Assembly (NCBI GenBank): GCA_049647625.1
Contig: JBARYA010000186.1
Span: 1 to 51,787 of the forward strand
DNA length: 51,787 nucleotides
Origin: Microbacteriaceae bacterium
GTDB lineage: Bacteria > Actinomycetota > Actinomycetes > Actinomycetales > Microbacteriaceae
Reading direction: 5' to 3'
Shown: one piece after another, positions 16,058 through 38,478 of the stretch
Layout: each line of letters starts with the position of its first letter
Numbering within the stretch: the first letter of the stretch is position 1
Translations under genes and position numbers: made by a program
The notes under the pieces: model-generated
Seen by the model: only the letters and a program-made list of their open reading frames with translations
What the model was told of the DNA's origin: nothing
Database searches by the model: none

Positions 16058-17968
16058 CTAGAGGGAGAAAGATATTTTGAGTTTTGTTCCTCTTGGTACA
16101 GTTTTTCCGGGGGCAGGATCAATCGCTGAAATGGTATAAAAAGCTGGGAATGCATCAGCTATCTGGTTGTAATCAAGACTGAACCCGGCATCGAGGAGTT
16201 GTTGTTTGATTTTATTACTCCACTTCTTGCCCACGAGGTCATCTGGAATTTTGACGGGAGCGGGACCCTTCGAGACGATGAGGGTTGGAGTGTCGCCGAC
16301 ACTCAGGACATCCGCTGCAACAAGGCTGACAACGTTGCCAGCAACAATATTGTCACTGTAGGCATCCTCGCCTCGAACCGGCTCAAGACCGACAGCCCGA
16401 AGTTCTGACTCGGCTGCGCCCAGAGAGAGATCAACAACACTTGGCACAGCACCTGCTGAAATCAGAAGAGAAATGGGGGCTTTCTCGAAGTAGTCTTTGC
16501 CCGCTTCGAGCAGATTCCCTTCTGCGTCATAGGCTGCAATGACGGTATCCTTTGGTACATCTGCACTAAATTGACGGACGAGGTCATTGCCAACGCTAAA
16601 GTCTGATGAAGTGATGAGCGCTTTTGCCACATCTACAGTGAGTCCACTGAACATTGGCAACTCAATCGGTTTTGGTCCGAGTGAGAGCACAATGGTGATC
16701 GTGCTTCCCTTTTGAACTTGTTCCCCGGCCGCCGGATCAGTACGTGAGACCTTGCCTAGATCTGTGCTGTAGTCATAGCTCTCATCAAAGTCATATTTCA
16801 GATCAAGTTTTGCCAATTGGGCTTCGACCAAAGCCTGTTCTTGATTCTGGAATTCTGGGATGGTCACCATGGCTCCGGGGCCGCTGCCAAAATACCAGCC
16901 AGTGCCACCGGCAAAGAGCGCGAGAACCATGACGATTGCAAAGAGAATTTTGCCCCGACGGTTTCTCTTCAGAGTGCGCTGTTCCAAAACACCGGTGGAT
17001 GTGCGGGTACTCCGAGCCGGCGCAATGCGCTCCTGAATAATTTCTGTGGCTTGGTTGCCGCGTGAGAACTGATCAGCGGCTGGTTCCAAGACCATGGTTT
17101 GGTCCATGTGGGAGACCGCACTTGGAAGAATAAGGCTACGGACTTCGCGGAGTGCGGTCAGAAGCTCGCCTGCATTGGCCGGGCGATCATCCGGGTCCTT
17201 TGCTGTTGCCCAAAGAACTAATTCGTCAAGCTCTTGAGGAATTCCGGGAACAATCAGGCTCGGGGCACCAACACTATCATTGGCATGCTGGTAGGCGATC
17301 TGCATCGGCTGTTCGCCAACAAAGGGCTGCTTCCCGGTAATCATTTCATAGAGCATGATGCCGATGGCATAAATGTCGCTCCGAACATCCGCGACACCCC
17401 GGGTGAGAAGTTCGGGGGAGAGGTAAGCGATTGTTCCAAGCAAAGCTTGACCGGTTGCGGTTGCCGAAGATGATGGGCGAGCCAGTCCAAAGTCGGAGAG
17501 TTTGATCCGTCCGTCGTCGGCAAGCAAAACGTTCTCGGGCTTGATATCCCGGTGAACGATACCGGCCTGGTGCGCTGCTGCAAGTCCTGAAAGCACCGCT
17601 TCCATAATGTCCAGGGCCTGCTCGGCAGTGAGCTGGCCGTGTTCTTCAAGCAGTTCTCTCAGGGTAATCCCGGGGAGATATTCCATGACCAAATAGGCCA
17701 TATCCTGATCTTGACCCTGATCAAAGACGCTAACCACATTTGGATGAGCCAAACGGGCAGCAGAATGTGCCTCCCGAATGAATCGTTCTCTAAATCCTGC
17801 ATCATCGGTGAGATGGTGGTGCATGACCTTCAGAGCGACACGACGTTCGAGGCGTTCATCGGTTGCTAAATAAACCGTCGCCATACCGCCACGGGCAATT
17901 TTGGACAAGACCCGATATCGAGCGTCGATTCGACGACCTATGACCGGATCAGTGTTTGAAGGCTCCAC
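16058..17968 (-). CDS. Ser/Thr protein kinase with a single TM segment and about four extracellular PASTA repeats (PknB/PknL-type)
   Basis: Kinase motifs (GGMATVYLA, HRDIKPENVLL, DFGLA), a TM segment (ILFAIVMVLALFAGGTGWYF), then four repeats of about 65 aa that end in GP/G-type PASTA signatures. Confidence 0.92.
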   Translation of the reverse strand: MEPSNTDPVIGRRIDARYRVLSKIARGGMATVYLATDERLERRVALKVMHHHLTDDAGFRERFIREAHSAARLAHPNVVSVFDQGQDQDMAYLVMEYLPGITLRELLEEHGQLTAEQALDIMEAVLSGLAAAHQAGIVHRDIKPENVLLADDGRIKLSDFGLARPSSSATATGQALLGTIAYLSPELLTRGVADVRSDIYAIGIMLYEMITGKQPFVGEQPMQIAYQHANDSVGAPSLIVPGIPQELDELVLWATAKDPDDRPANAGELLTALREVRSLILPSAVSHMDQTMVLEPAADQFSRGNQATEIIQERIAPARSTRTSTGVLEQRTLKRNRRGKILFAIVMVLALFAGGTGWYFGSGPGAMVTIPEFQNQEQALVEAQLAKLDLKYDFDESYDYSTDLGKVSRTDPAAGEQVQKGSTITIVLSLGPKPIELPMFSGLTVDVAKALITSSDFSVGNDLVRQFSADVPKDTVIAAYDAEGNLLEAGKDYFEKAPISLLISAGAVPSVVDLSLGAAESELRAVGLEPVRGEDAYSDNIVAGNVVSLVAADVLSVGDTPTLIVSKGPAPVKIPDDLVGKKWSNKIKQQLLDAGFSLDYNQIADAFPAFYTISAIDPAPGKTVPRGTKLKISFSL

Positions 17969-18026: not shown

Positions 18027-19292
18027 TTACTTGAGCAAACTCAGCCAGTGGCGAGCAGATGCTTCCCACTTGGCATAGGCCTCCGGGAAGCCAGAAATCT
18101 GGACAGCTTGGGCTGCCTTGGTCACGGACATCCCTTCCCAGCCACGAATATCGAGCAAACCACGAGTTTTTCCTGGATTCGGATTTACCGAACCGCCAAA
18201 GAATGCTTTCGCAGAACGGTATGGATCCATGATTTGCTCGACAGTTCCCCATCCGGTGGATGGACGCTGTTGGAACAGGCCTACAGAATCACGATCACCG
18301 TAGTTGATATTACGAAGTCCAGATTCCTGAGCGGCGGTCGCTAAAGCTATGACCAAGCCGTAGTCGGAGACGCCGGCGCTGCGGCCAACCTCAACAATAA
18401 TTCGTGCATTAATCAGCATTTCAGTGCTGAGTTCGGCGTGTACTTGGCAATCATCACTAACGAGGGTAGCGCCTGGGATTGTAAGCTTTTGCCCGGCAAA
18501 AATGAGGCTGTTCAGACCAAGACCATTCGCGCTCAGAACAGTTTGCACCTTGACGCCAAATTTCGATGCAATCCGGCTCACCGTATCACCCGGCATAATC
18601 GTATAGCTCACTGCGGTGCAGCTTGCTGGCGCTGGGGCGGAGGTTGCCGGTGGTGCTGGCTGCGCAGCGTTGTCATTGGATGGGGCAGTGGCACTAGCCG
18701 GAACTTTGAGTACCTGCTTGGGATAAATAATGCTCTTCCAATTCAGACCATTCAGATCCAAAATCCCTTGGGTGGATACGCCGAACTTGGCTGCGATACC
18801 GCTGACCGTATCGCCAGCTTTTACGGTGTAGCTATCGCTGCTATTTCCGGGTTGTGGAGCAGGTGCAGGTGTAGGAGCTGGTGTAATCGGGGTAACGCTC
18901 CCTTTCGAAAGGAGCAGTTGTTGGCCTGGGAAAATCAAACTTGACCAGCCGAGCCCGTTCAAAGCCAGGATACTTGCGGTAGAAATTCCATGTTGTTGAG
19001 CAATTCCGCTGACAGTATCGCCCTTTTTGACCGTGTAGCTGAGCTGGCTAGTGGCAACGCTGATTGCAGCAGTGTCGTTCGGGCTGGCTTCACTCTGAAG
19101 TGGAATAACACTTGCCTTGTTTTCGCCCTTGATCTGCTTATCCTTTTCAGGGGATGGTTGAGCTTTGGCCGAATCAACTCCGGCAAGATTGAGGCTCAGC
19201 ACCAAGGAAGATGCCATCACCAATGGCATGGTTTGCATGAGCTTCCGCGAAACTTGGTGCTGCGGGGAAGCAGTTTTCTTTTCGTTCAACAT
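18027..19292 (-). CDS. Secreted 3x LysM protein with a C-terminal SLT-like (lytic transglycosylase-like) domain
   Basis: The signal peptide ends in AKA. There are three LysM repeats (YTVKKGDTVSGIAQQHG..., YTVKAGDTVSGIAAKFG..., YTIMPGDTVSRIASKFG...). The C-terminal domain carries AAQESG and GLFQQ motifs, which recall the SLT E-S / GLMQ blocks. I chose the ATG at 19292 (MLNEKK) because GGAG lies 8 nt upstream; the track start is 19319. Confidence 0.75.
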   Translation of the reverse strand: MLNEKKTASPQHQVSRKLMQTMPLVMASSLVLSLNLAGVDSAKAQPSPEKDKQIKGENKASVIPLQSEASPNDTAAISVATSQLSYTVKKGDTVSGIAQQHGISTASILALNGLGWSSLIFPGQQLLLSKGSVTPITPAPTPAPAPQPGNSSDSYTVKAGDTVSGIAAKFGVSTQGILDLNGLNWKSIIYPKQVLKVPASATAPSNDNAAQPAPPATSAPAPASCTAVSYTIMPGDTVSRIASKFGVKVQTVLSANGLGLNSLIFAGQKLTIPGATLVSDDCQVHAELSTEMLINARIIVEVGRSAGVSDYGLVIALATAAQESGLRNINYGDRDSVGLFQQRPSTGWGTVEQIMDPYRSAKAFFGGSVNPNPGKTRGLLDIRGWEGMSVTKAAQAVQISGFPEAYAKWEASARHWLSLLK

Positions 19293-19433
19293 ATCAAACA
19301 CTCCGCACTGGCCGGCCATGAGGCAATCGTTTACAGGTCTTCATAGATGTTAACAGACCATACTTAAGTATTCTACTGTGAAAATTTGTTACTAATGTGA
19401 AAAGAGTTAATATGTTCGAAACATTAGCGTTGT

Positions 19434-23748: not shown

Positions 23749-25524
23749 ATGTCGCTCAACTCAGACCCACAGTTTCAGGTGAGACGACGCCAGCTTGTGG
23801 TGTTGTTCGCAGTTTTGGTTTTATGCCTGCCAATTATTTTTCGCTTGGTCGATTTCCAAGTTGTTCGGGCTGCGGATTTGAACCAAGAGGCATTGCAGCG
23901 GCGCTCAATTCCGGTGACGATCTATGGCACTCGGGGTAATATCTACGATGCTGATGGCAAAGTGATGGCGAGTTCGGTGATGCGTTATAACATCACCAGT
24001 TCTCCCCGTTTTGCAACCGAGAGTTTCAAGCGTGTGAGCGATGAGGGCGTGCGTGAAACGGTCAGTCGTGATCAGGCTATTACTGAGTTAGCCGAAGTGA
24101 CTGGTGTTTCGGCTGAATCGATTCGCGAAGCCCTGAACAAGAATCCCGAAAGTGACTTTGCTTTTCTTGCCCAGAATGTCGATGTTGAAGTACTTCGGGC
24201 TGTGCAGAATCTCGCAATTCCTTGGGTATATTCTGAACAGACTCCGGCACGAACGTATCCCAATGGGGCAGTTGCGGGTAATCTCATCGGCTTTATGTCG
24301 AAGGATGGGCCTGGCGCAGGAATAGAGCTGCTGCTCAATGAGACCTGCCTTGCACCGCAAAACGGTACCGAAACATATGAGCGCGGCCTAGACGGTGTGC
24401 GTATTCCTGGCTCTACCGTAGTGACTGAGCAGGTCAAAAATGGAGCGGATGTTCAGCTCACCATCAGCTCTGATTTGCAGTGGTACGCTCAGGAGGCCTT
24501 AGCCGCCGGCGCGCAAGATGCGAGGGCCGAGTGGGCGACAGCGATTGTTATTGAGGTTGAAACTGGAAAGATTCGTGCCGTAGCAGAGTATCCAACAGCC
24601 GATTCAAATAATCCCGGTGCGACCCATCCCGATACCTGGACTTCTCGCTCGTTTACCAGCCCATATGAGCCCGGTTCTACCATGAAGACCCTCACACTGG
24701 CAGCAGCGATGAGCGAGGGAGCAATTACCTCGACCACCGGTGTGACTGTTCCATGGCGGGTCAACTTTGGGAATGATATTGTGATTGGCGATTCCTTCCA
24801 GCACGGTGATACCAAATGGACCGCTGCCGGTGTTATGGCTCAATCTTCGAATATTGGTACCATATTCCTTTCACAGAATATCCCCTCGAGTGTGCGTTAT
24901 GACTATATGGTGAAGACCGGTTTCGGCAGCAAAACCGGAGTCAACTTCTTAGGTGAATCACGGGGTATTTTCAATGGTCCCGGCAAGTGGGATAAGCACA
25001 CTGAGCTGGCAACGAACTATGGTCAGGGTATTTCTGTCACAGCCATGCAGATGGCCGCCAGCTATCAGGTGATTGGCAATGATGGCAAGAAGATTCCGCT
25101 GTCACTGGTTGAAGGCTGCTCCTGGGAAGATGGCACGGTCACTGATACCCCAGATTTGAGCGGTACAGAACAGGTCTTCACTCCGGCAGCAGCCCAAGCC
25201 GCACAGGACCTCCTTGAAACCACGGTGAATTCGAGCTGGTTGGAGCCACAACTTTCTATCGCCGGATACCGAGTTGGCGCAAAAACAGGAACTGCTCAGG
25301 TCGCCGAGAACGGCCGTTATGGTGATAAAGCGGTCACTTCGATCATTGGTATGGTTCCGATGGACAATCCAAAATACGTCGTAGCAGTCACTCTTGGATA
25401 TCCGGTCAATAAGAGCACACGCGCTGTCGCGCCGATCTTTCGCGATATTATGACTCAGGTGCTCAAAACCTATAAAATTGAGCCGTCTACCGAACCGGTA
25501 GTAAAGCTACCTACCACTTGGTAA
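23749..25524 (+). CDS. ftsI: Class B penicillin-binding protein / peptidoglycan D,D-transpeptidase FtsI
   Basis: Carries the STMK, SSN and KTGT motifs and an N-terminal TM anchor. The position in the dcw cluster fits. Confidence 0.93.
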   Translation: MSLNSDPQFQVRRRQLVVLFAVLVLCLPIIFRLVDFQVVRAADLNQEALQRRSIPVTIYGTRGNIYDADGKVMASSVMRYNITSSPRFATESFKRVSDEGVRETVSRDQAITELAEVTGVSAESIREALNKNPESDFAFLAQNVDVEVLRAVQNLAIPWVYSEQTPARTYPNGAVAGNLIGFMSKDGPGAGIELLLNETCLAPQNGTETYERGLDGVRIPGSTVVTEQVKNGADVQLTISSDLQWYAQEALAAGAQDARAEWATAIVIEVETGKIRAVAEYPTADSNNPGATHPDTWTSRSFTSPYEPGSTMKTLTLAAAMSEGAITSTTGVTVPWRVNFGNDIVIGDSFQHGDTKWTAAGVMAQSSNIGTIFLSQNIPSSVRYDYMVKTGFGSKTGVNFLGESRGIFNGPGKWDKHTELATNYGQGISVTAMQMAASYQVIGNDGKKIPLSLVEGCSWEDGTVTDTPDLSGTEQVFTPAAAQAAQDLLETTVNSSWLEPQLSIAGYRVGAKTGTAQVAENGRYGDKAVTSIIGMVPMDNPKYVVAVTLGYPVNKSTRAVAPIFRDIMTQVLKTYKIEPSTEPVVKLPTTW

Positions 25525-25541: not shown

Positions 25542-27107
25542 ATGTCGAAGAGTTTAGATTTTCGCCCCATCGGGGTACCTGAGATTCGCTTATCTCAGCT
25601 CGCCGAAGCCCTCGGTGGCACGGTACATAATACGGATTCAGACCCGCAAATTCGGGGGATAAGCCTCGATAGTAAACAACTGCGCCCGGGTGATGTTTTC
25701 GCAGCACTGGCTGGCAAATTTCAGCACGGTGCTAAATATGCAGAACAAGCGTTGAGTGCCGAGGCCGTGGCAATTTTGACGGATGCTGAGGGTCTCGGTC
25801 ATATCCTTGACCAGGGGCTGGCCTTGCCGGTTCTTGTGGTGGAGCGTCCTCGCCTCGCTGCGGCGACAGCTGCGGAATTGCTGTATACCCGTGGAAAGAC
25901 TTTGCCCCAGCTTTTTGGCGTCACCGGAACCAATGGCAAGACCATGACAATGTATCTGCTCGATGAGATCGCGCGTTTGTGCGGTCAGAAAACTGCACTT
26001 TCCACCACTGCGGAACGTCGGATTGGCGATATAAACCTTGTTGGTGGTTTGACCACTCCGGAATCAACTGAATTACATGCCCTGATCGGGGTGATGGCCG
26101 AACAGAATGTGGATACAGCACTCATCGAGGTCAGCGCCCAAGCGGTCACGCATAATCGTCTCTTGGGGCAACATTTTTCGGTGATGTCATTTCTGAATCT
26201 CAGCCATGACCATCTCGATGATTACGCCAGTATGGAGGAGTACTATCGGGCGAAAGCACGGTTATTCCATAGCGATATTTCGGCAGCAGCGGTTATCTCA
26301 CTCGACACTGAATGGGGCGAACGGCTCTATGCTGAAACCCACATCCCCAAGCTCAGTATCGATTGGTCTGATTCGCCCCGAAATCCTGATTGGACGGTAG
26401 AAATCGTCTCGCAGGATCTCGAGCTCAGTGAACTGCTGTTATCGAATGCAAAGACCGGGGAGCAATTGAATGCCCGCGTAGAGCTTTTTGGCGAGCAAGT
26501 GCTTTTTGATACAGCTATTGCAATCCTGATGTTTTTGAGCGCTGGGGTGAACTTCGATCGCCTGAAGTCTGTTCTTGGAGAACACAGTATTCCATGGACC
26601 TCACCGGGCCGGATGGAAATTTTGCGTACTCCTCATGCCGGGGGCGTTGCGGGGCCAACGATGATTCTTGATTATGGTCACACCCCGGAAGCATTCACAC
26701 ACTCATTAAAGGCGATTAATTCTGTACATTCGGGCCCGGTCATCATGCTCTTTGGGGTCGATGGCGACCGAGACACCACCAAGAGGGCTGCTATGGCTGA
26801 GAATGCGGCAGCGCAGAGCGACATTGTGATCATTACCGATTACAACCCTCGCTTCGAGGATCCGGGGGCTATCCGAGGTGTGCTTCTTGAAGCCATCAAG
26901 AGCACGTATCCCGAGCGTGAATTGCACGAGGAAGCTGATCCTGCAAGTGCAATACGCCTCGCAATTCGCCTTGCTGGGGATAATGGATTGATTTTCTGGG
27001 CAGGTCCGGGCCACGAGGACTATCGTGAAGTGCAGGGGCAACGGTTGGACTATTCATCACGAGAAGATTCTTTAGCGGCGCTAGCCGAGGCAGGTTGGCT
27101 ACCATGA
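25542..27107 (+). CDS. murE: UDP-N-acetylmuramoyl-L-alanyl-D-glutamate--diamino acid ligase MurE
   Basis: P-loop VTGTNGKTMT, all three Mur-ligase domains, and a C-terminal DGDRD block. The amino-acid specificity motif reads DYNPR. The ATG at 25542 is preferred over the TTG at 25518. Confidence 0.9.
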   Translation: MSKSLDFRPIGVPEIRLSQLAEALGGTVHNTDSDPQIRGISLDSKQLRPGDVFAALAGKFQHGAKYAEQALSAEAVAILTDAEGLGHILDQGLALPVLVVERPRLAAATAAELLYTRGKTLPQLFGVTGTNGKTMTMYLLDEIARLCGQKTALSTTAERRIGDINLVGGLTTPESTELHALIGVMAEQNVDTALIEVSAQAVTHNRLLGQHFSVMSFLNLSHDHLDDYASMEEYYRAKARLFHSDISAAAVISLDTEWGERLYAETHIPKLSIDWSDSPRNPDWTVEIVSQDLELSELLLSNAKTGEQLNARVELFGEQVLFDTAIAILMFLSAGVNFDRLKSVLGEHSIPWTSPGRMEILRTPHAGGVAGPTMILDYGHTPEAFTHSLKAINSVHSGPVIMLFGVDGDRDTTKRAAMAENAAAQSDIVIITDYNPRFEDPGAIRGVLLEAIKSTYPERELHEEADPASAIRLAIRLAGDNGLIFWAGPGHEDYREVQGQRLDYSSREDSLAALAEAGWLP

Positions 27108-28546
27108 TTGCAATGACACTGGCTGAGATTGCGGAGGCCGTGCAAGGCACCGTAGTTGATTCGCATTCCGAAAGCACCGTGGTATCCGGTGTCGTCCAAA
27201 CCGATTCCCGTCTCGTGAGCGCCGGGGACATTTTTTTTGCTCTGCGCGGGGCTGAAGCAGACGGTCACGATTTTGCGCCGGGTGCGGCGAGCCGAGGCGC
27301 AGCATTGCTCATTGTTGAGCGAGAACTGACCGAGCTCACTCAGGCACAGATTGTCGTCAGTGATGGCTTGGTGGCTCTGGCCGCCCTAGCAAAAAATGTG
27401 TTGGCAAGAGTTCGCGCAAAAGGCCAGGTCCGCGTCGTGGCGGTTACCGGTTCAAACGGCAAGACAACCACAAAAAACATGTTGCAGCAGATGCTTGAGG
27501 TCTTTGGGGAAACAGTTTCACCAATCGAGTCGTTCAACAACGAGGTTGGGATGCCAATCTCAGTTCTCAAAGTTACCGATACCACTGAATTCTTGGTGGT
27601 TGAGATGGGTGCCAGCGCGCGGGGTGAAATTGCCAGCATGGTAGACATCGCACCACCGGATGTGGCCCTGGTCTTGAAAGTTGGATTGGCACATCTCGGA
27701 GATTTTGGCGACATTCGCGATACCCAACAGGCGAAGGCCGAAATGGTTCGTAGCTTGCCACAGAGTTCAACAGCAATCCTCAACCTCGATGATGCGATGG
27801 TTCGTGAAATGGCTGATTGGACCGAGGCCGAAGTTCGCTTCTTCAGCCTGAACAACCCGGCTGCCGATGCGCATACCACCACAATCGATAGCGGAATCTG
27901 GGGAACCCGGTTCGGGCTCGAGCTGAAACCACATCCTGAACGAGAAGTTTCATTACAGATTTTGGGTGAGCACCATGTCTACAATGCTTTGGCCGCACTC
28001 CTCGCTGTTGAAGCGCTCGGTCTGGATCTTCCAAAGGCAATTGATGCGCTCGGAAAGATGACTCGTGCAGAACGTTGGCGCATGGAAAAGTTTGTTTTGC
28101 CAAATGGTGCCATCGTAATCAATGATGCCTATAACGCCAGCCCTGATTCCGCCGCCGCCGCACTCAAAACCTTGGCAATCCTTGCCCGTCAAGAGGGACG
28201 TCGTGCCGTCGCCGTTTTCGGCGAAATGGCAGATCTCGGTGAAGCGAGCTGGCAGGAGCACAAAGACCTCGGTATTTTAGCGGTTCGTCTCAATATTTCG
28301 CAGCTCTATGTTGTTGGTGAGGGGGCGAAGATGTTGCACAACTCCACCAGTTTTGAGGGGTCCTGGGATGGTGAATCGATTTACTGTGAAACCATCGAGG
28401 AGTGTGAAGCGTTGCTCCAGGATGCTATCCAGGCAAATGACATGGTTCTTTTTAAGTCGAGTAAATCCGCCAATATCCGCTTCCTCGGTGACAGAATTAC
28501 AGGAGTAGCTCTTGACGGTTCTCGAGCACAGGAGGAGAGCTTGTGA
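27104..28546 (+). CDS. murF: UDP-N-acetylmuramoyl-tripeptide--D-alanyl-D-alanine ligase
   Basis: P-loop VTGSNGKTTTKNML. The ATG at 27104 overlaps the murE stop in an ATGA. Confidence 0.92.
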   Translation: MIAMTLAEIAEAVQGTVVDSHSESTVVSGVVQTDSRLVSAGDIFFALRGAEADGHDFAPGAASRGAALLIVERELTELTQAQIVVSDGLVALAALAKNVLARVRAKGQVRVVAVTGSNGKTTTKNMLQQMLEVFGETVSPIESFNNEVGMPISVLKVTDTTEFLVVEMGASARGEIASMVDIAPPDVALVLKVGLAHLGDFGDIRDTQQAKAEMVRSLPQSSTAILNLDDAMVREMADWTEAEVRFFSLNNPAADAHTTTIDSGIWGTRFGLELKPHPEREVSLQILGEHHVYNALAALLAVEALGLDLPKAIDALGKMTRAERWRMEKFVLPNGAIVINDAYNASPDSAAAALKTLAILARQEGRRAVAVFGEMADLGEASWQEHKDLGILAVRLNISQLYVVGEGAKMLHNSTSFEGSWDGESIYCETIEECEALLQDAIQANDMVLFKSSKSANIRFLGDRITGVALDGSRAQEESL

Positions 28547-29640
28547 TTGCCCTGATTTTTGCTGGCGCATTTGGCCTCGCTTTTTCCCTCTTTCTGACGC
28601 CGGTGTTTGCCAAGATGTTCCGCAGGATGAACCTGGGGCAATATATCCGGGCGGATACTCCAACCTCGCACCAGCTGAAACGTGGCACCCCGAGTATGGG
28701 CGGCGTGGTATTCATCGCTGCAGCCACCCTCGGCTACTTCCTGGCCAAACTCCTCAGCCAACAGCTGCCAAGCGTGCCGGCTCTTCTGGTCATTATGATG
28801 ATGGTAGGCCTCGGGCTTATCGGCTTCTTAGACGATTGGTTGAAAGTACGTCGCAGCAATAGCCTAGGGCTGAACCACTGGTTCAAGATTCTGGGCCAAT
28901 TGATTGTTGGGGCCGCTTTTGCGATTCTGGCTCTCGGCTATCAAGACAGCAATGGAACCACTGCCGCAACCACGGCGATTTCGCTCTTCCGCGATTTAGA
29001 CTTCGATTTTGTTGTCACCTTTGGCGTTGTCTTGGGAATTGCGCTCTTCGTGGTGTGGATTGTTTTGCTCACCGTTTCTGTTTCCAATGCGGTGAACCTT
29101 ACCGATGGACTTGATGGTCTGGCCGGTGGGGCCTCAATCTTTGCTATTGGCTCTTACATCATTATTGGTTTTTGGCAGGCGAATCAGTCCTGCTTCAATG
29201 TGAATCTCGATCCGGCAGTGATGGAGAAGTGTTATATCGTCTCTAGCCCGCTCGATTTGGCTGTTATTGCAGCGGCAATTGTTGGCGCCCTTGTTGGTTT
29301 CCTCTGGTGGAACACTTCGCCAGCACAAATCATGATGGGAGATACCGGGGCACTCGGTCTTGGTGGGGCACTCACCGCACTGGCTGTAATGAGCCGCACC
29401 GAGCTGCTTCTCGTTCTTCTTGGTGGCCTTTTCGTCTGGATCACCATGACGGTCATTATCCAGCGTATTTATTTCAAAGCGACCAAGGGCAAGCGCATTT
29501 GGTTGAGCACCCCGATTCACCATCACTTTGAGCTGAAGGGGTGGCAGGAAGTCACAATTGTGGTGCGCTTCTGGATTATTCAGGGCATGTGTGTGGCTTT
29601 GGGCGTGGGGCTGTTCTATCTCGAGTGGACATCCATCTAA
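28543..29640 (+). CDS. mraY: Phospho-N-acetylmuramoyl-pentapeptide transferase
   Basis: Carries NLTDGLDGLA and GDTGALGLGG motifs in a polytopic protein. The start overlaps the murF stop in a GTGA. Confidence 0.95.
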   Translation: MIALIFAGAFGLAFSLFLTPVFAKMFRRMNLGQYIRADTPTSHQLKRGTPSMGGVVFIAAATLGYFLAKLLSQQLPSVPALLVIMMMVGLGLIGFLDDWLKVRRSNSLGLNHWFKILGQLIVGAAFAILALGYQDSNGTTAATTAISLFRDLDFDFVVTFGVVLGIALFVVWIVLLTVSVSNAVNLTDGLDGLAGGASIFAIGSYIIIGFWQANQSCFNVNLDPAVMEKCYIVSSPLDLAVIAAAIVGALVGFLWWNTSPAQIMMGDTGALGLGGALTALAVMSRTELLLVLLGGLFVWITMTVIIQRIYFKATKGKRIWLSTPIHHHFELKGWQEVTIVVRFWIIQGMCVALGVGLFYLEWTSI

Positions 29641-30669
29641 GTGGCAGAGTCAGATCAATCATTGCCGCTTGGCACCAGTAGAGAATTTTGGAAGAATCGC
29701 CGAGTTCTTATCCTGGGTGCGGGGGATACTGCATTCAGCGCTGCAGATACCCTGGCAGAATTGCAAGCCGAACTTTTGGTAGTAGCACTCAGTGCGAACC
29801 CTGATTTATTGCCACTATTCCAAGTGATTGGTGCTGATCCTCGTCTGGGTTTGAGTGAAGATGAAATGCTCGAGGCGGCACTCGAATTCAATCCAGAATT
29901 TATTATTGCCTCGCCAAGTTTCTCGCCCGAGCATCCGGTTCTCACACATTTTGTTTCACATGCAGACACAGAAGTGCTCTCTGAAGCAGAGTTGGCCTGG
30001 CGACTTCGGGCCGTGTTTTCAGAACACCCCGCAGAGTGGATTACTCTGAGCGGAGAACACGCACGGAGGGTTGCCGAACTTGCCGAGAATATGCTCTCGA
30101 CTGCAGGGATTGCCGCCATCCGCCTTGGTTTTGGCTCGGCTCCGGTACTTGATGGAATTAGAAATCCCGAGAAGTTTGACTATTTTCTGATCGTGTTGAG
30201 CCCTGAGCAATTACACTTTCAGCACAGGGTTCAGCCTTTGATGAGTCTCTTCCTATCGCCAGATGTTCAGCCGAGTTGGCATGAGGATGCAGCTGCTCGT
30301 CTCGTTGACCAGGGCAAGATTTTTTCGAATACGCAAAAATTTGCACTCTACAACCGATCTGATGAACTGGCTGAAATTCTATTGCGGGAGGCAGATGTTA
30401 TCGACGGCTGCCGAGCCATTGGATTTTGGTTGGCAAGCCCCGGCCCGGGGGATCTTGGCGTGGTTGAAGAGTTGGTTGTTGATCGTGCCTACCTCGAGGA
30501 CCGCCGAAATTCTGCCCTAGAAATCAGTACCCTGGATGAACTTCAGCGTGCGGGTTTTGAAGGACAAGAGCAGTTTGAAATATTTTTGGCTGCCGCCGCC
30601 CTGGTACGAGGTCTCGGGGTTACACCAGAAGAAATCACACTATTTTTGAGCCAACGCTCAGCTTTCTAA
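29641..30669 (+). CDS. MurD-like Mur-ligase homolog lacking catalytic motifs and the C-terminal domain (pseudoenzyme or decaying gene)
   Basis: It sits in the murD slot between mraY and ftsW. MurD-like blocks are retained (VLILGAGDTAFSAA, IIASPSFSPEHPVL, SEAELAWRL, VVDRAY). The P-loop position reads ITLSGEHARR instead of GTNGKT. The ORF is 342 aa, against roughly 450-500 aa for MurD. The GTG start immediately follows the mraY stop. Confidence 0.7.
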   Translation: MAESDQSLPLGTSREFWKNRRVLILGAGDTAFSAADTLAELQAELLVVALSANPDLLPLFQVIGADPRLGLSEDEMLEAALEFNPEFIIASPSFSPEHPVLTHFVSHADTEVLSEAELAWRLRAVFSEHPAEWITLSGEHARRVAELAENMLSTAGIAAIRLGFGSAPVLDGIRNPEKFDYFLIVLSPEQLHFQHRVQPLMSLFLSPDVQPSWHEDAAARLVDQGKIFSNTQKFALYNRSDELAEILLREADVIDGCRAIGFWLASPGPGDLGVVEELVVDRAYLEDRRNSALEISTLDELQRAGFEGQEQFEIFLAAAALVRGLGVTPEEITLFLSQRSAF

Positions 30670-30816
30670 GAAATATCCCTCATTAATGTGGCTTTCAAGC
30701 TTCACGTTAAGGTTTAGGGAGTGTCATTATCGATTTCTGCGAGAAATCAGCGAACAATTGAAGTGTTCGAAAATATGCCAGGTACGGCTACAGGATTTTA
30801 AAGAGAGGAATGATCT

Positions 30817-32007
30817 ATGACGCAAACCCTGCGACAGAATGCCTCCCTCTCTGAAAATCCCAGAACCAGGGTTCGTGTCAAAGCACTGTTCAGCGTAGAG
30901 CATCGGAACTATTTTTTCCTTCTTGGCGTTGTCATTCTGCTTATCCTTTTCGGCACCATTATGGTCTTTTCGTCATCATCGGTTTCAGACTTTGCCAGCA
31001 CCGGAAATGCCTTCACTGGGCTAATCAGTCAGGGACGCTTCGTCATCATTGGTATCCCCATCATGCTCCTCGCATCCCGCATGCCAATTATTTTTTGGAA
31101 AAAATGGGCACTGGTCATTTTGGGTGGAGCCTGTGCCTTCCAGTTGCTCATTTTGACGACCCATATGGGCTCTGCAACCGGTGGTAATCTCAACTGGGTA
31201 ACCATTGCGGGGGTGACCTTTCAACCCTCGGAGTTGATTAAGGTCGGTATTGCTTTATGGCTAGCACTCTCCTTTACCCGATTGAATGCACAAACTAGCG
31301 ATTGGCGCCGGATGATAGGCCCAATCGTTCTGGTTCCGGGTGCTGCAATTGGACTGGTCATGCTGGGCTGGGATCTCGGCACCTCGCTCATTCTTGGTTT
31401 GATTCTCTTCGCCGGAGCGTATTTTGCCGGAGTGAAATTACGCTACCTTGCTGTTTCCGCGGTGATTGCCGGCATTGCCGTTTTTCTGATGGTGATCTCG
31501 AGTACTTCACGTATGCAGAGAATCATGGCATTCGCTGATAAAGGCGGTTGTATTGACTATGAGGGGAGCTGCTGGCAGGTAACACATGCGAGTTATGCTC
31601 TCTCGGCCGGAAATATTTTTGGAGTTGGGCTCGGGAACTCAAAGGCGAAGTGGAATTGGTTACCGACGGCCGAAAACGATTTCATCTTCGCAATTATCGG
31701 CGAGGAGCTTGGCCTAGCCGGTGCGATAACCGTTATTGCTCTCTTTGTGCTGTTGGCTATTGCGCTTATCCGGGTCATTGATGCGAATAAGTCTGACCCC
31801 TTTATCCGGGTCTTTACCGGTTCTGTACTGGTTTGGCTTGTTGGGCAAGCATTCATCAATATTGCCGTTGTACTGCAATTGGCGCCGGTGCTCGGGGTTC
31901 CACTTCCGTTTATTTCTGCCGGTGGATCCTCCCTGATAGCGACAATGATAGCCATCGGTATTGTGCTCTCATTTAGCAAATCCGGAAAAGACGTGGTTCA
32001 ACTATGA
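30817..32007 (+). CDS. ftsW: SEDS-family peptidoglycan glycosyltransferase FtsW
   Basis: About 10 TM segments, SEDS motifs (QPSELIKV, NDFIFAIIGEELG, PFISAGGSS), and the expected dcw position. Confidence 0.92.
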   Translation: MTQTLRQNASLSENPRTRVRVKALFSVEHRNYFFLLGVVILLILFGTIMVFSSSSVSDFASTGNAFTGLISQGRFVIIGIPIMLLASRMPIIFWKKWALVILGGACAFQLLILTTHMGSATGGNLNWVTIAGVTFQPSELIKVGIALWLALSFTRLNAQTSDWRRMIGPIVLVPGAAIGLVMLGWDLGTSLILGLILFAGAYFAGVKLRYLAVSAVIAGIAVFLMVISSTSRMQRIMAFADKGGCIDYEGSCWQVTHASYALSAGNIFGVGLGNSKAKWNWLPTAENDFIFAIIGEELGLAGAITVIALFVLLAIALIRVIDANKSDPFIRVFTGSVLVWLVGQAFINIAVVLQLAPVLGVPLPFISAGGSSLIATMIAIGIVLSFSKSGKDVVQL

Positions 32008-35651: not shown

Positions 35652-36830
35652 GTGTCAAAACAAAATTACCTCGCTGTTATCAAGGTCGTTGGTATCGGTG
35701 GTGGCGGCGTTAACGCCGTAAACCGCATGATCGATATGGGCCTCAAGGGCGTCGAATTTATTGCGATTAATACTGATGCTCAGGCGCTGCTACTCAGTGA
35801 CGCCGATGTAAAACTCGATGTGGGACGAACCCTCACTCGCGGGCTTGGCGCTGGCGCTGACCCAGAGGTTGGTCGACGCGCTGCAGAAGATCATGCCGAT
35901 GAAATTGAAGAAGTAATCAAGGGTGCCGATATGGTGTTCGTTACCGCGGGTGAAGGCGGCGGCACCGGTACCGGTGGAGCCCCGGTCGTTGCAAGAATTG
36001 CAAAATCACTTGGCGCATTGACCATCGGTGTAGTCACCAAACCTTTTGGTTTTGAAGGCAAGCGTCGGATGGATCAGGCCGATGCCGGCATTGAACGACT
36101 CAAAGAAGAAGTCGATACCCTTATTGTGGTCCCGAACGATCGCCTGCTCGATATTAGCGACCAGGGCATCAGCGTGACCGATGCATTTGCTACCGCAGAC
36201 CAGGTACTCCTGGCCGGTGTTCAGGGCATTACCGATTTGATCACCACACCAGGTTTGATCAACCTCGACTTTGCCGATGTGAAGTCAGTTATGCAGGGTG
36301 CCGGATCGGCACTGATGGGTATTGGCTCCGCACGGGGCACAGATCGCGCGCTCAAGGCCGCGGAACTTGCTGTAGCCTCTCCATTGCTTGAAGCTTCAAT
36401 CGATGGCGCACACGGCGTACTCCTTTCGATTCAGGGAAGCTCAAATCTGGGCATTTTCGAAATCAACGATGCAGCCAGCCTGATCCGCGAAACCGTACAC
36501 CCAGAAGCAAACATTATCTTCGGTGCAGTAATCGACGATACTCTCGGCGACGAAGTTCGGATCACCGTTATTGCGGCAGGTTTCGACGAGGGGAAATTAC
36601 ACGCGGTGAAAACCGAAAGCCCACGCCGGAGCAATTTCGTCGAGGGTAACCAGACTGGAGAGGCACCGAGCATTCACACCACCGGTGAGCAGGAAAGCTA
36701 TACTGCTGCATCCAATTTTGAAAATGATGAAGAAGCAACCCCGCTGCTTATTTCTCAGACCGCGAATGTACACCCTGAGTATGGTGAAGATCTTCTGGGT
36801 GACCTCGATGTTCCAGATTTCCTCAAGTAG
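35652..36830 (+). CDS. ftsZ: Cell division GTPase FtsZ
   Basis: [22 protein letters not shown], the tubulin signature [10 protein letters not shown], and the C-terminal peptide DLDVPDFLK. The GTG at 35652 has an AAGGGA 8 nt upstream and gives a typical N-terminal length. The track ATG at 35616 has no SD and would add 12 aa. Confidence 0.93.
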
Positions 36831-36911
36831 TTCGACACGCCAAAGGAAAGTCAGCCGAAAAGGGCAAAGTGCGGTTAATCTTGCTCTAAGTTCATAATTA
36901 TCGGAGGAACA

Positions 36912-37364
36912 ATGTCTAATCCATTTCGCAACGCGATGGCGTATCTCGGTCTCGTCGAAGAGGGAGCAGAGTATGAGTCAGCACCGGTTGCCCCGATTCA
37001 GCAGAGCGCGCCTCAGCAATCGAATCGTGCCCAGGTGACTCCGATCCGTCGTGCCCAGAATCGGGTAGCGGTACAGAGTGAAATGAATGAAATTCTGACC
37101 GTTCATCCAAAGCAGTACAGCGATGCTCGTGTTGTAGCTGAGAACTTCCGTGAGGGAATTCCAGTCATCATCAATCTTTCTCAGATGGGCGAAGCAGATG
37201 CTCGTCGACTCATTGATTTTGCCAGTGGCCTTTCACAGGGTCTCTATGGCAAAATTGAGCGCGTAACTTCAAAAGTCTTTTTGCTCTCACCGGCCCATAT
37301 CGCGGTTTCTGGTGATAGCAACGAAGAGGTGCTGGACGATGCAGCCTTCTTTGACCAACACTAA
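36912..37364 (+). CDS. sepF: Cell division protein SepF
   Basis: An N-terminal amphipathic [14 protein letters not shown] and a C-terminal SepF domain ([21 protein letters not shown]...[10 protein letters not shown]). A GGAGGA SD is present. Confidence 0.92.
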
Positions 37365-37380
37365 GGTCTAAATACCACCC

Positions 37381-37689
37381 TTGATTATTATTGAGTCCAT
37401 AGCGGGAATCCTTTCTTTTCTGCTCCTGCTATTTCAAATATTGCTTTGGGTATATTTCGGTATTTCTCTTTTCATGACGATTCGCCGTGATTGGCGACCT
37501 CGTGGAGCTGTGCTGTTTATTGTTGATTTGAGTTTCCGTATTGTCGAGCCACCCCTCAAGCTGGTTCGGAAATTTGTTCCCTCACTCGATCTCGGTGGAT
37601 TCAGGCTCGATCTTGCTTGGATGATTTTGTTATTCGCCACGATTATTTTGCGGGGCATGGTGGGTGCATTACCGGCATTTTTCAGTTGA
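37381..37689 (+). CDS. YggT family membrane protein
   Basis: A small two-TM protein in the conserved position between sepF and divIVA. The start codon is TTG. Confidence 0.8.
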   Translation: MIIIESIAGILSFLLLLFQILLWVYFGISLFMTIRRDWRPRGAVLFIVDLSFRIVEPPLKLVRKFVPSLDLGGFRLDLAWMILLFATIILRGMVGALPAFFS

Positions 37690-37836
37690 CCGCGAGCGAT
37701 ATTGGGGTGAAAACTGTGAATGATTTCATCGCTTCAAAGGTGTTTTCGGTAAACGTCAGGTAATGTAACTTAGAGAGTGTATCTCGAGTAGTGTTTCAAC
37801 GAAGCACGCTAAGACGTAAAGATTAAGGATTGTGAA

Positions 37837-38478
37837 ATGGCTCTTTCCCCGGAAGATGTATTCAACAAAAAGTTCACATCGACCAGGCTTCGTGAAGGTT
37901 ACGACCAGGACGAGGTAGATGATTTCCTTGATGAAATTGTTGTTGAATTCCGTTCTCTGAACCAGCAAGAAGAAGAACTGCGCCAGCGTCTGGTTGCCAG
38001 CGATTCACGGATCAACGAGCTTCAGCGTCAAAATGGCCAGGTCATTGCCGAGCAGCTTCAAGAGCACATTTCAGAAACCGGGCAACAGAGTGGCTTGCCT
38101 TTCCCATCACAAACAGTTGATGCCAGCATTCTTGAACCAAGCAATACTTCAAATCTTTTGCAGCTTGCCCGTCGCCTCCATGAAGAGCATGTCCAAGAAG
38201 GCATTCAGAAGCGTGATGCCCTCATTGCTGAAGGACACGCTACTGCGGCCCGTCTCGTATCTGAGGCAGAGGCTGAGCACAAGGCAGGCCTTCGTGAACT
38301 TGAGCAGGAACAAGCACTGGTTCAGAACCGCATTGATGAGCTGAAGAGCTTTGAGCGCGAATACCGGAATAAGCTTCGTGGATTCATTAAGGGTCAGCTC
38401 GATGAGCTTTCTCAGGGCGGCGCTGATGAGGCTCCAGATGCTGGAGTTGCACCACAGGCCGCTGTACAGGCCAACTAG
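37837..38478 (+). CDS. divIVA: DivIVA/Wag31 polar growth and division scaffold
   Basis: N-terminal LSPEDVFNKKFTSTRLREGYDQDEVDDFLDEIV, followed by coiled coil. Confidence 0.93.
   Translation: MALSPEDVFNKKFTSTRLREGYDQDEVDDFLDEIVVEFRSLNQQEEELRQRLVASDSRINELQRQNGQVIAEQLQEHISETGQQSGLPFPSQTVDASILEPSNTSNLLQLARRLHEEHVQEGIQKRDALIAEGHATAARLVSEAEAEHKAGLRELEQEQALVQNRIDELKSFEREYRNKLRGFIKGQLDELSQGGADEAPDAGVAPQAAVQAN

Follow-up and report, generated by a model that had tools for sequence, protein, structure and literature searches.

MurD (EC 6.3.2.9; TIGR01087; PDB 1UAG and 3LK7) is regarded as a universal, essential enzyme and an antibiotic target, and murD as a fixed landmark of the dcw operon. Dead relatives of cell-wall enzymes are known outside the Mur ligases: CwlM of mycobacteria is an amidase homologue that has no catalytic activity and regulates MurA, and EnvC and NlpD are dead LytM factors. 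Among the ligases themselves, MurD binds MurE-MurF with a dissociation constant of about 0.8 uM, independently of nucleotide, and MurD-FtsW fusion proteins exist in Actinobacteria (PMC10214165). In some Actinobacteria the canonical MurD step is replaced by the MurD2/MurL pathway, in which L-Glu is added and then epimerised; among Actinobacteria it is reported from Micromonospora, Actinoplanes, Verrucosispora and Salinispora but not from Microbacteriaceae (PMC8788868). Here we examine a contig of a Microbacteriaceae bacterium (JBARYA010000186.1 of assembly GCA_049647625.1; 51,787 nt, hereafter the window), whose murD slot between mraY and ftsW holds a MurD-like open reading frame (ORF). We class the encoded protein as a probable pseudoenzyme descended from a Mur ligase, whose gene has taken the place of the essential one. 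The ORF and its former nucleotide-binding site are:

29641-30669, forward strand: truncated murD homologue of 342 aa, taken from the ORF list and supported by profile, fold and substitution-rate evidence
30040-30069, forward strand: degenerate P-loop position, residues 134-143, reading ITLSGEHARR against VTGTNGKTTT in alignments with canonical MurD

Fold and active site of the MurD-like protein

The protein is a MurD homologue made of the N-terminal and central domains only, and the likeness is far beyond chance. Canonical MurDs find it by tblastn at E about 1e-65 to 1e-70, and it is ~40% identical to canonical Microbacteriaceae MurDs across their first ~330 residues (domains 1-2). The NCBIfam murD profile TIGR01087 matches at E=6.6e-17, but its alignment covers only positions 1-296 of 441, and the score of 61.7 bits lies below the whole-protein cutoff of 211.95 by which members of the MurD family are recognised. 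Pfam MurD-like_N reaches only E=0.038, below its cutoff, and Mur_ligase_M and Mur_ligase_C have no match in the protein, the latter standing for the C-terminal D-Glu-binding domain; MurE, MurF and MurC of the window each carry all three Pfam Mur ligase domains. On a canonical profile of 504 positions the C-terminus falls at position 333, immediately before domain 3.

The protein is predicted to fold as MurD domains 1-2. Its AlphaFold2 model (pLDDT 94.9, pTM 0.92) comprises both the Rossmann-like UDP-binding N-terminal domain and the central-domain fold of MurD, and when it was compared with the PDB by Foldseek, the top 33 matches were MurD (TMq 0.69-0.77; 3lk7 at E=1.4e-17, TMq 0.77), followed by MurC. 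A PDB sequence search with the protein alone returned nothing useful.

When aligned with MurD of E. coli and of other actinobacteria (canonical forms), the protein shows SG-EHARR in place of the P-loop GTNGKTT, and G..GK[ST] occurs nowhere in it. Of the E. coli residues that serve Mg or the acyl phosphate, the Mg-binding Glu157 is replaced by Val and His183 by Gln, the carbamylated Lys198 by Gln and Asn138 by Phe, and the adenine-binding motif HxxN reads E..I; no shifted register in the alignments restores the catalytic residues. The same loss runs through the truncated family described below: conservation of the P-loop columns is >=0.94 in canonical MurD and <=0.25 in the family, and that of the active-site columns as a whole (P-loop, N163, E184, N205, D209, H210, W213, H214, Y220) is >=0.9 and <0.4, respectively. 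Judged from these substitutions, the protein is catalytically dead as well as truncated, with ATP and Mg binding in the MurD manner seemingly impossible and no domain for D-Glu. With the site for ATP and Mg gone, and with it the domain 3 that binds D-Glu, it should be unable to ligate D-glutamate, and as every catalytic mark of membership is missing, annotation as a MurD enzyme is unwarranted.

These results bear out most of what an earlier reading of the locus, the first-pass annotation, had said of the protein. The 342-aa ORF is there between mraY and ftsW with its GTG abutting the mraY stop, and so are all the peptides quoted from it, i.e. ITLSGEHARR (nt 30040-30069), VLSPEQL, SPDVQPSWH, GVVEELVVDRAY and LAAAALVRGLGV; the claims that it is catalytically dead and that it ends where domain 3 should start both stood up to the alignments and to the profile and structure-prediction checks that had been proposed.

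The identity of the L-Glu-adding ligase MurD2 was also considered for the protein and is ruled out, there being no ATP site, no domain 3 and no murL-like neighbour; the window as a whole holds no MurD2- or MurL-like gene.

The truncated family, its origins and selection

The first-pass annotation underestimated the scope of the case: the protein is not a one-off but a member of a large family. An exhaustive profile search over 1.84 billion cluster representatives, with the family counted at 50% identity clustering, yielded 48 complete truncated representatives of 302-364 aa without GxxGK[ST]. The C-termini of all 48 fall at canonical profile positions 333-345, at a median pairwise identity of 37%. 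The window protein is one of the 48 and has every family mark (300-365 aa, a C-terminus where domain 2 would give way to domain 3, no P-loop, and the conserved block at residues 251-327). Word-indexed protein searches strongly undercount the family, recovering 6 members vs 48 by profile search; a scan of GTDB representative genomes with the single window protein gave no match, and one with a three-sequence alignment (lineage-specific peptides) returned only canonical Rothia MurD. Our literature search on a dead or truncated MurD family found nothing relevant; the truncated MurD-like family, large and of recurrent origin, is apparently undescribed. Its most conserved part is:

30391-30621, forward strand: block of residues ~251-327, nearly invariant in the family, with the pattern ADV.DGCRAIGF...PGPGD.GVVE..VVDRAY..DRRN.ALE...LAAAALVRGLG

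Among the 48 representatives, V253, G256, P267, G273, D281, R282, E294 and R323 of this block are conserved at 1.00 and R258, A259, R288 and A292 at 0.98, and A283 and F284 also belong to the nearly invariant set.

The gene keeps its place as well as its form. The two closest homologues, P0002 (Logan assembly) and P0003 (JGI metagenome), each share 59% identity with the window protein, measure 328-329 aa, have no P-loop and are encoded between mraY and ftsW. A murD-derived gene stands in the mraY-ftsW slot of the window and of every one of the 16 distinct related loci that were inspected, and the truncated form fills the slot on L001, L002, L003, L057, L042, L088, L090, L092-L095, L096, L097 and L099, on contigs of independent origin (Logan, JGI, ENA and NCBI metagenome-assembled genomes, MAGs). 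The comparison of orthologous loci that the first-pass annotation had proposed thus finds the truncation conserved. Searching with the window MraY brought up two loci with the same gene type, L088 (MraY 81% identical) and L090 (71%), and two with canonical murD, L089 and L100 (70-72%); in a scan of JGI metagenomes 76 of 80 loci were canonical, and L042 and L057 were revealed as truncated forms.

Members of the family range from 48% to 74% in GC content. One truncated clade turns up often in marine data, Tara metagenomes among them; its contigs reach 472 kb, and the NCBI MAGs GCA_002414525.1 and GCA_002325105.1 belong to it. The marine copies L092-L095 are identical in DNA and so carry no synonymous information. 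PGAP gives members from one Actinomycetia MAG and from Propionibacteriaceae MAGs the label 'hypothetical protein', and IMG calls some members of the family MurD. Two kinds of relative are intermediate in form: (i) Full-length dead homologues (451-508 aa; P0371, P0398, P0438, P0463) have dead P-loops and degenerate domain-3 motifs, and P0371 occupies the murD slot on L098 (2108-3625); they resemble intermediate stages at which catalysis had gone but truncation had yet to happen. (ii) P0359 on L099 is truncated and sits in the murD slot, and retains a GK[ST] remnant.

Host relationships were taken from bootstrapped neighbour-joining trees of concatenated MraY and FtsW, that is, distance trees of two proteins only. 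The truncated lineages were monophyletic in 0/200 bootstraps; L057 was sister to canonical L014/L015 in 289/300 replicates, and the window with L001 was sister to canonical L013/L016 in 297/300. In an enlarged host tree truncated and canonical lineages were again interleaved, with several deeper nodes weak; automated MurD-status labels were not used for it, as upstream ORF extension in high-GC DNA misleads them. Canonical MurD trees follow the host tree, which argues for repeated degeneration rather than one loss and later regains. On these distance trees the interleaving implies at least two independent origins of truncated murD, and there were probably four or five independent degenerations.

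The ratio of nonsynonymous to synonymous substitution rates (dN/dS) could be taken from two orthologue pairs. Between L001 and L002 it is 0.063 for the truncated gene (dS about 1.7) and 0.02 for the adjacent mraY end (dS 1.1-1.6). Between L057 and L042, the most degenerate forms seen, with further internal deletions and yet constrained, it is 0.07-0.10 (dS 0.3-0.4), alongside 0.075-0.13 for the neighbouring ftsW start (dS 0.27-0.47). For the window and L001, whose synonymous sites are saturated, only dN can be given: 0.36 for the truncated gene, 0.29 for murE, 0.21 for murF and 0.10 for mraY. Protein identity between these two is 59% for the MurD-like protein and 86% for MraY; at MraY identities of 81-86%, pairs of truncated proteins are 40-60% identical and canonical MurD pairs 76-79%. 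By these measures the protein evolves faster than a working MurD and is clearly constrained, with purifying selection acting on it.

The spacer and the surrounding operon

The flanks of the ORF hold the following features:

28543-29640, forward strand: mraY, the upstream neighbour, whose stop TAA (29638-29640) adjoins the GTG start of the MurD-like ORF
30670-30816, forward strand: spacer where domain 3 would be expected, 147 nt, GC 0.395, no domain-3 remnant
30697-30730, forward strand: conserved non-coding block in the spacer, from alignment with the two closest relatives, with the core TTTAGGGAGTGTCA at 30713-30726
30817-32007, forward strand: ftsW, the downstream neighbour, without an N-terminal extension carrying MurD domain 3 (tblastn)

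The first-pass annotation had called the spacer AT-rich, too short for domain 3 and closed by stops in all frames. Its length and low GC content stand, and tblastn finds no domain-3 remnant in it (only noise at E>2) or elsewhere in the window; the stops, however, lie in two of the three frames, and the third frame ends just upstream, at the stop 30647-30649. Part of the spacer is conserved: a block of ~30 nt is common to the three closest relatives despite saturated synonymous sites and absent from the 84 other loci. As an exact 14-mer the core occurs once in the window and, among 87 loci, only in L001 (11018-11031) and L002 (1407-1420); the core and its flanks may be an ftsW promoter or operator. 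No convincing consensus RNA fold and no Rfam family were found in the spacer, and a terminator and promoter scan around the ORF gave nothing relevant above shuffle expectation.

The window is an ordinary piece of actinobacterial chromosome. Its dcw order is a penicillin-binding protein (PBP) gene (23749-25524), murE, murF (27095-28546, intact), mraY, the MurD-like ORF, ftsW, murG, murC, ftsQ and ftsZ. On the 5' side of dcw lie genes for an MFS transporter, pyruvate carboxylase, DAHP synthase, a PASTA kinase, a LysM protein and a polyprenyl synthase, and on the 3' side those for SepF, DivIVA, LspA, RluD, DnaE, HisD, PyrD and CoxB.

We also note some side features of the operon: (i) Upstream of rsmH/mraW, where one is expected in Actinobacteria, there is an Rfam mraW RNA motif (RF01746; 22009-22106, forward strand) that scores 50.7 bits, right at the gathering threshold. 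(ii) A PASTA-domain Ser/Thr kinase, PknB-like (16058-17968, reverse strand), and a protein with three LysM repeats (18027-19319, reverse strand) are encoded just upstream of dcw, and the pair is also present in L097 and L100; a kinase of this type could act as a regulator of Mur proteins. (iii) At 36830-37840 of the window ftsZ is followed directly by sepF with no YggS gene between them; L092, L096, L097 and L100 have YggS/YlmE (PF01168) and YggT between ftsZ and divIVA. The YggS-free junction suggests a streamlined dcw tail.

Possible roles and known counterparts

We lean, with little more than even confidence, towards the reading that the protein is a pseudoenzyme derived from MurD and retained for a structural or regulatory role, the active ligase being encoded outside the contig. 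Stably folded as MurD domains 1 and 2, it would be translated as part of the dcw operon through coupling of its start to the stop of mraY, and purifying selection would keep a non-catalytic job that actinobacterial MurD already held. That job may be docking within, or regulation of, the cytoplasmic Mur ligase/MraY/MurG/FtsW machinery, with the nearly invariant charged block at 251-327 (DRA[FY], R288, E294, R323) as the candidate contact surface. MurC, MurE, MurF, MraY, MurG, FtsW and the PBP are intact and depend on the MurD product, so a D-Glu-adding ligase is called for elsewhere; a relocated or acquired MurD would be its simplest source, and a route of the MurD2/MurL type, documented from other Actinobacteria, would be an alternative (PMC8788868).

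Several observations pull against the reading of a retained pseudoenzyme with its ligase elsewhere. A second murD is absent from the 51.8-kb contig by tblastn with four canonical MurDs, which gave only cross-matches to MurC, MurE and MurF plus noise, and an active murD is likewise absent from the flanks of the other carriers (<=10 kb per side, shorter on short contigs). The positions N138 and H183, which contact UDP-MurNAc-L-Ala, are lost in the window protein, and L057 and L042 have a deletion of the SPG loop; with these residues degraded a substrate-channelling role is doubtful, and substrate binding is unlikely as the retained function. None of the 36 truncated clusters examined contains a named cultured isolate, their sources being metagenomes and MAGs, vs about a fifth of the canonical MurD clusters in the same match lists; this absence hints at a link to lifestyle, which a scaffold would not predict. 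Finally, murF decays too. In L096 (8440-8892) and L097 (8449-8922), both with truncated murD, the murF slot holds a C-terminal-domain stub of 150-157 aa, and in L089 (8618-9541) and L100 (9066-10001), with canonical murD, murF is 307-311 aa long and has no N-terminal domain and little of its catalytic core. The D-amino-acid-adding ligases thus decay repeatedly in these relatives while MurC and MurE do not, and one extra murD copy does not by itself explain the degeneration of murF.

The isolate counts and the decayed murF genes beside intact MurC and MurE would fit a reading in which carriers have no MurD activity at all, with the L-Ala-D-Glu part of the stem peptide supplied by salvage of muropeptides or peptides from other bacteria or by an unrecognised enzyme and the remnant kept for binding; the defect would then be bound up with their uncultured state. 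We nevertheless think this improbable: we know of no salvage route that bypasses MurD alone, and the window, which encodes DAHP synthase, HisD, PyrD, pyruvate carboxylase and cytochrome oxidase, does not resemble a reduced symbiont. Similarly doubtful is the wider proposition that many uncultured Actinomycetota have truly lost the D-Glu ligase, and some the D-Ala-D-Ala ligase also, and make or take up that part of the stem peptide through salvage from neighbours or an unrecognised enzyme, the MurD and MurF stubs being parts of the new machinery. A shade less probable still is neofunctionalisation, by which the protein would have gained a new activity, in ligand binding or catalysis, that is independent of ATP and of domain 3 and relies on the invariant Asp, Arg and Glu residues of 251-327. 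The low dN/dS would suit it, as would residues more conserved in truncated than in canonical proteins (D36, 0.98 vs 0.40; E294, 1.00 vs 0.77; R323, 1.00 vs 0.77), a contrast inflated by the broader taxonomy of the canonical set. Most of the charged residues are, however, conserved in canonical actinobacterial MurD too, which marks them as inherited, not new, and Pfam and NCBIfam detect no new motif or domain in the protein.

Mere decay, or an ORF held open only for translational coupling between mraY and ftsW without selection on the protein, is very unlikely. The faster divergence of the protein relative to its neighbours (59% vs 86% for MraY, as above) and the extra internal deletions of L057 and L042 are what a pseudogene might show; against it, the frame is intact in all relatives, including lineages with saturated synonymous sites, the invariant motifs are kept, dN/dS is <=0.10 even in the most degenerate pair, and 48 diverged representatives share one end point. 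As for coupling, most carriers have a spacer of 35-230 nt ahead of ftsW, L099 being the exception with 1 nt, so that the stop of the gene and the start of ftsW are in most cases not coupled. The preference of the first-pass annotation for a retained pseudoenzyme over a decaying copy is therefore upheld by dN/dS (0.06-0.10) and by the common architecture on independent contigs. A sequencing or assembly indel splitting a normal murD can be set aside almost entirely, since no frame downstream has coding potential for domain 3, the catalytic motifs are all substituted rather than shifted, and the same gene recurs in independent assemblies from different sources.

A dead and shortened murD thus fills the slot of a free-living-looking actinobacterium, and this state has come about repeatedly and is maintained by selection in dozens of diverged uncultured lineages. 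If a retained pseudoenzyme is what these genes encode, actinobacterial MurD would have a second, non-catalytic function worth keeping, and in carriers some other enzyme or route would supply the D-Glu step and, in some of them, that of D-Ala-D-Ala as well; if true, loss of the D-amino-acid-adding ligases would help explain the lack of cultured carriers. The truncated family would provide a natural dissection of catalytic and non-catalytic constraints on MurD and make the long-postulated idea of a Mur-complex scaffold testable. For metabolic reconstruction from MAGs, the MurD labels that IMG puts on truncated proteins overstate pathway completeness.

Set beside the known systems, the protein shares homology, fold and the mraY-ftsW slot with canonical MurD and differs from it in having no P-loop, Mg ligands, carbamylated-Lys position, HxxN or C-terminal domain. 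MurD2 is a full-length ATP-dependent ligase, unlike this protein, and the MurD2/MurL pathway is a candidate for the missing activity. The interaction logic of the Mur complexes and chimeras (MurE-MurF, MurD-FtsW; PMC10214165) is what we invoke for a MurD remnant next to ftsW, although the MurD parts of those assemblies are catalytically intact, and this one is dead and unfused. CwlM, EnvC and NlpD offer the closest analogy to the proposed role, in that catalysis was lost and the protein kept to regulate cell-wall synthesis or to serve as an adaptor in it; they differ in fold and ancestry, and their functions are experimentally shown where ours would be inferred. None of the three occupies the slot of the essential enzyme from which it derives, as the truncated MurD homologue does.

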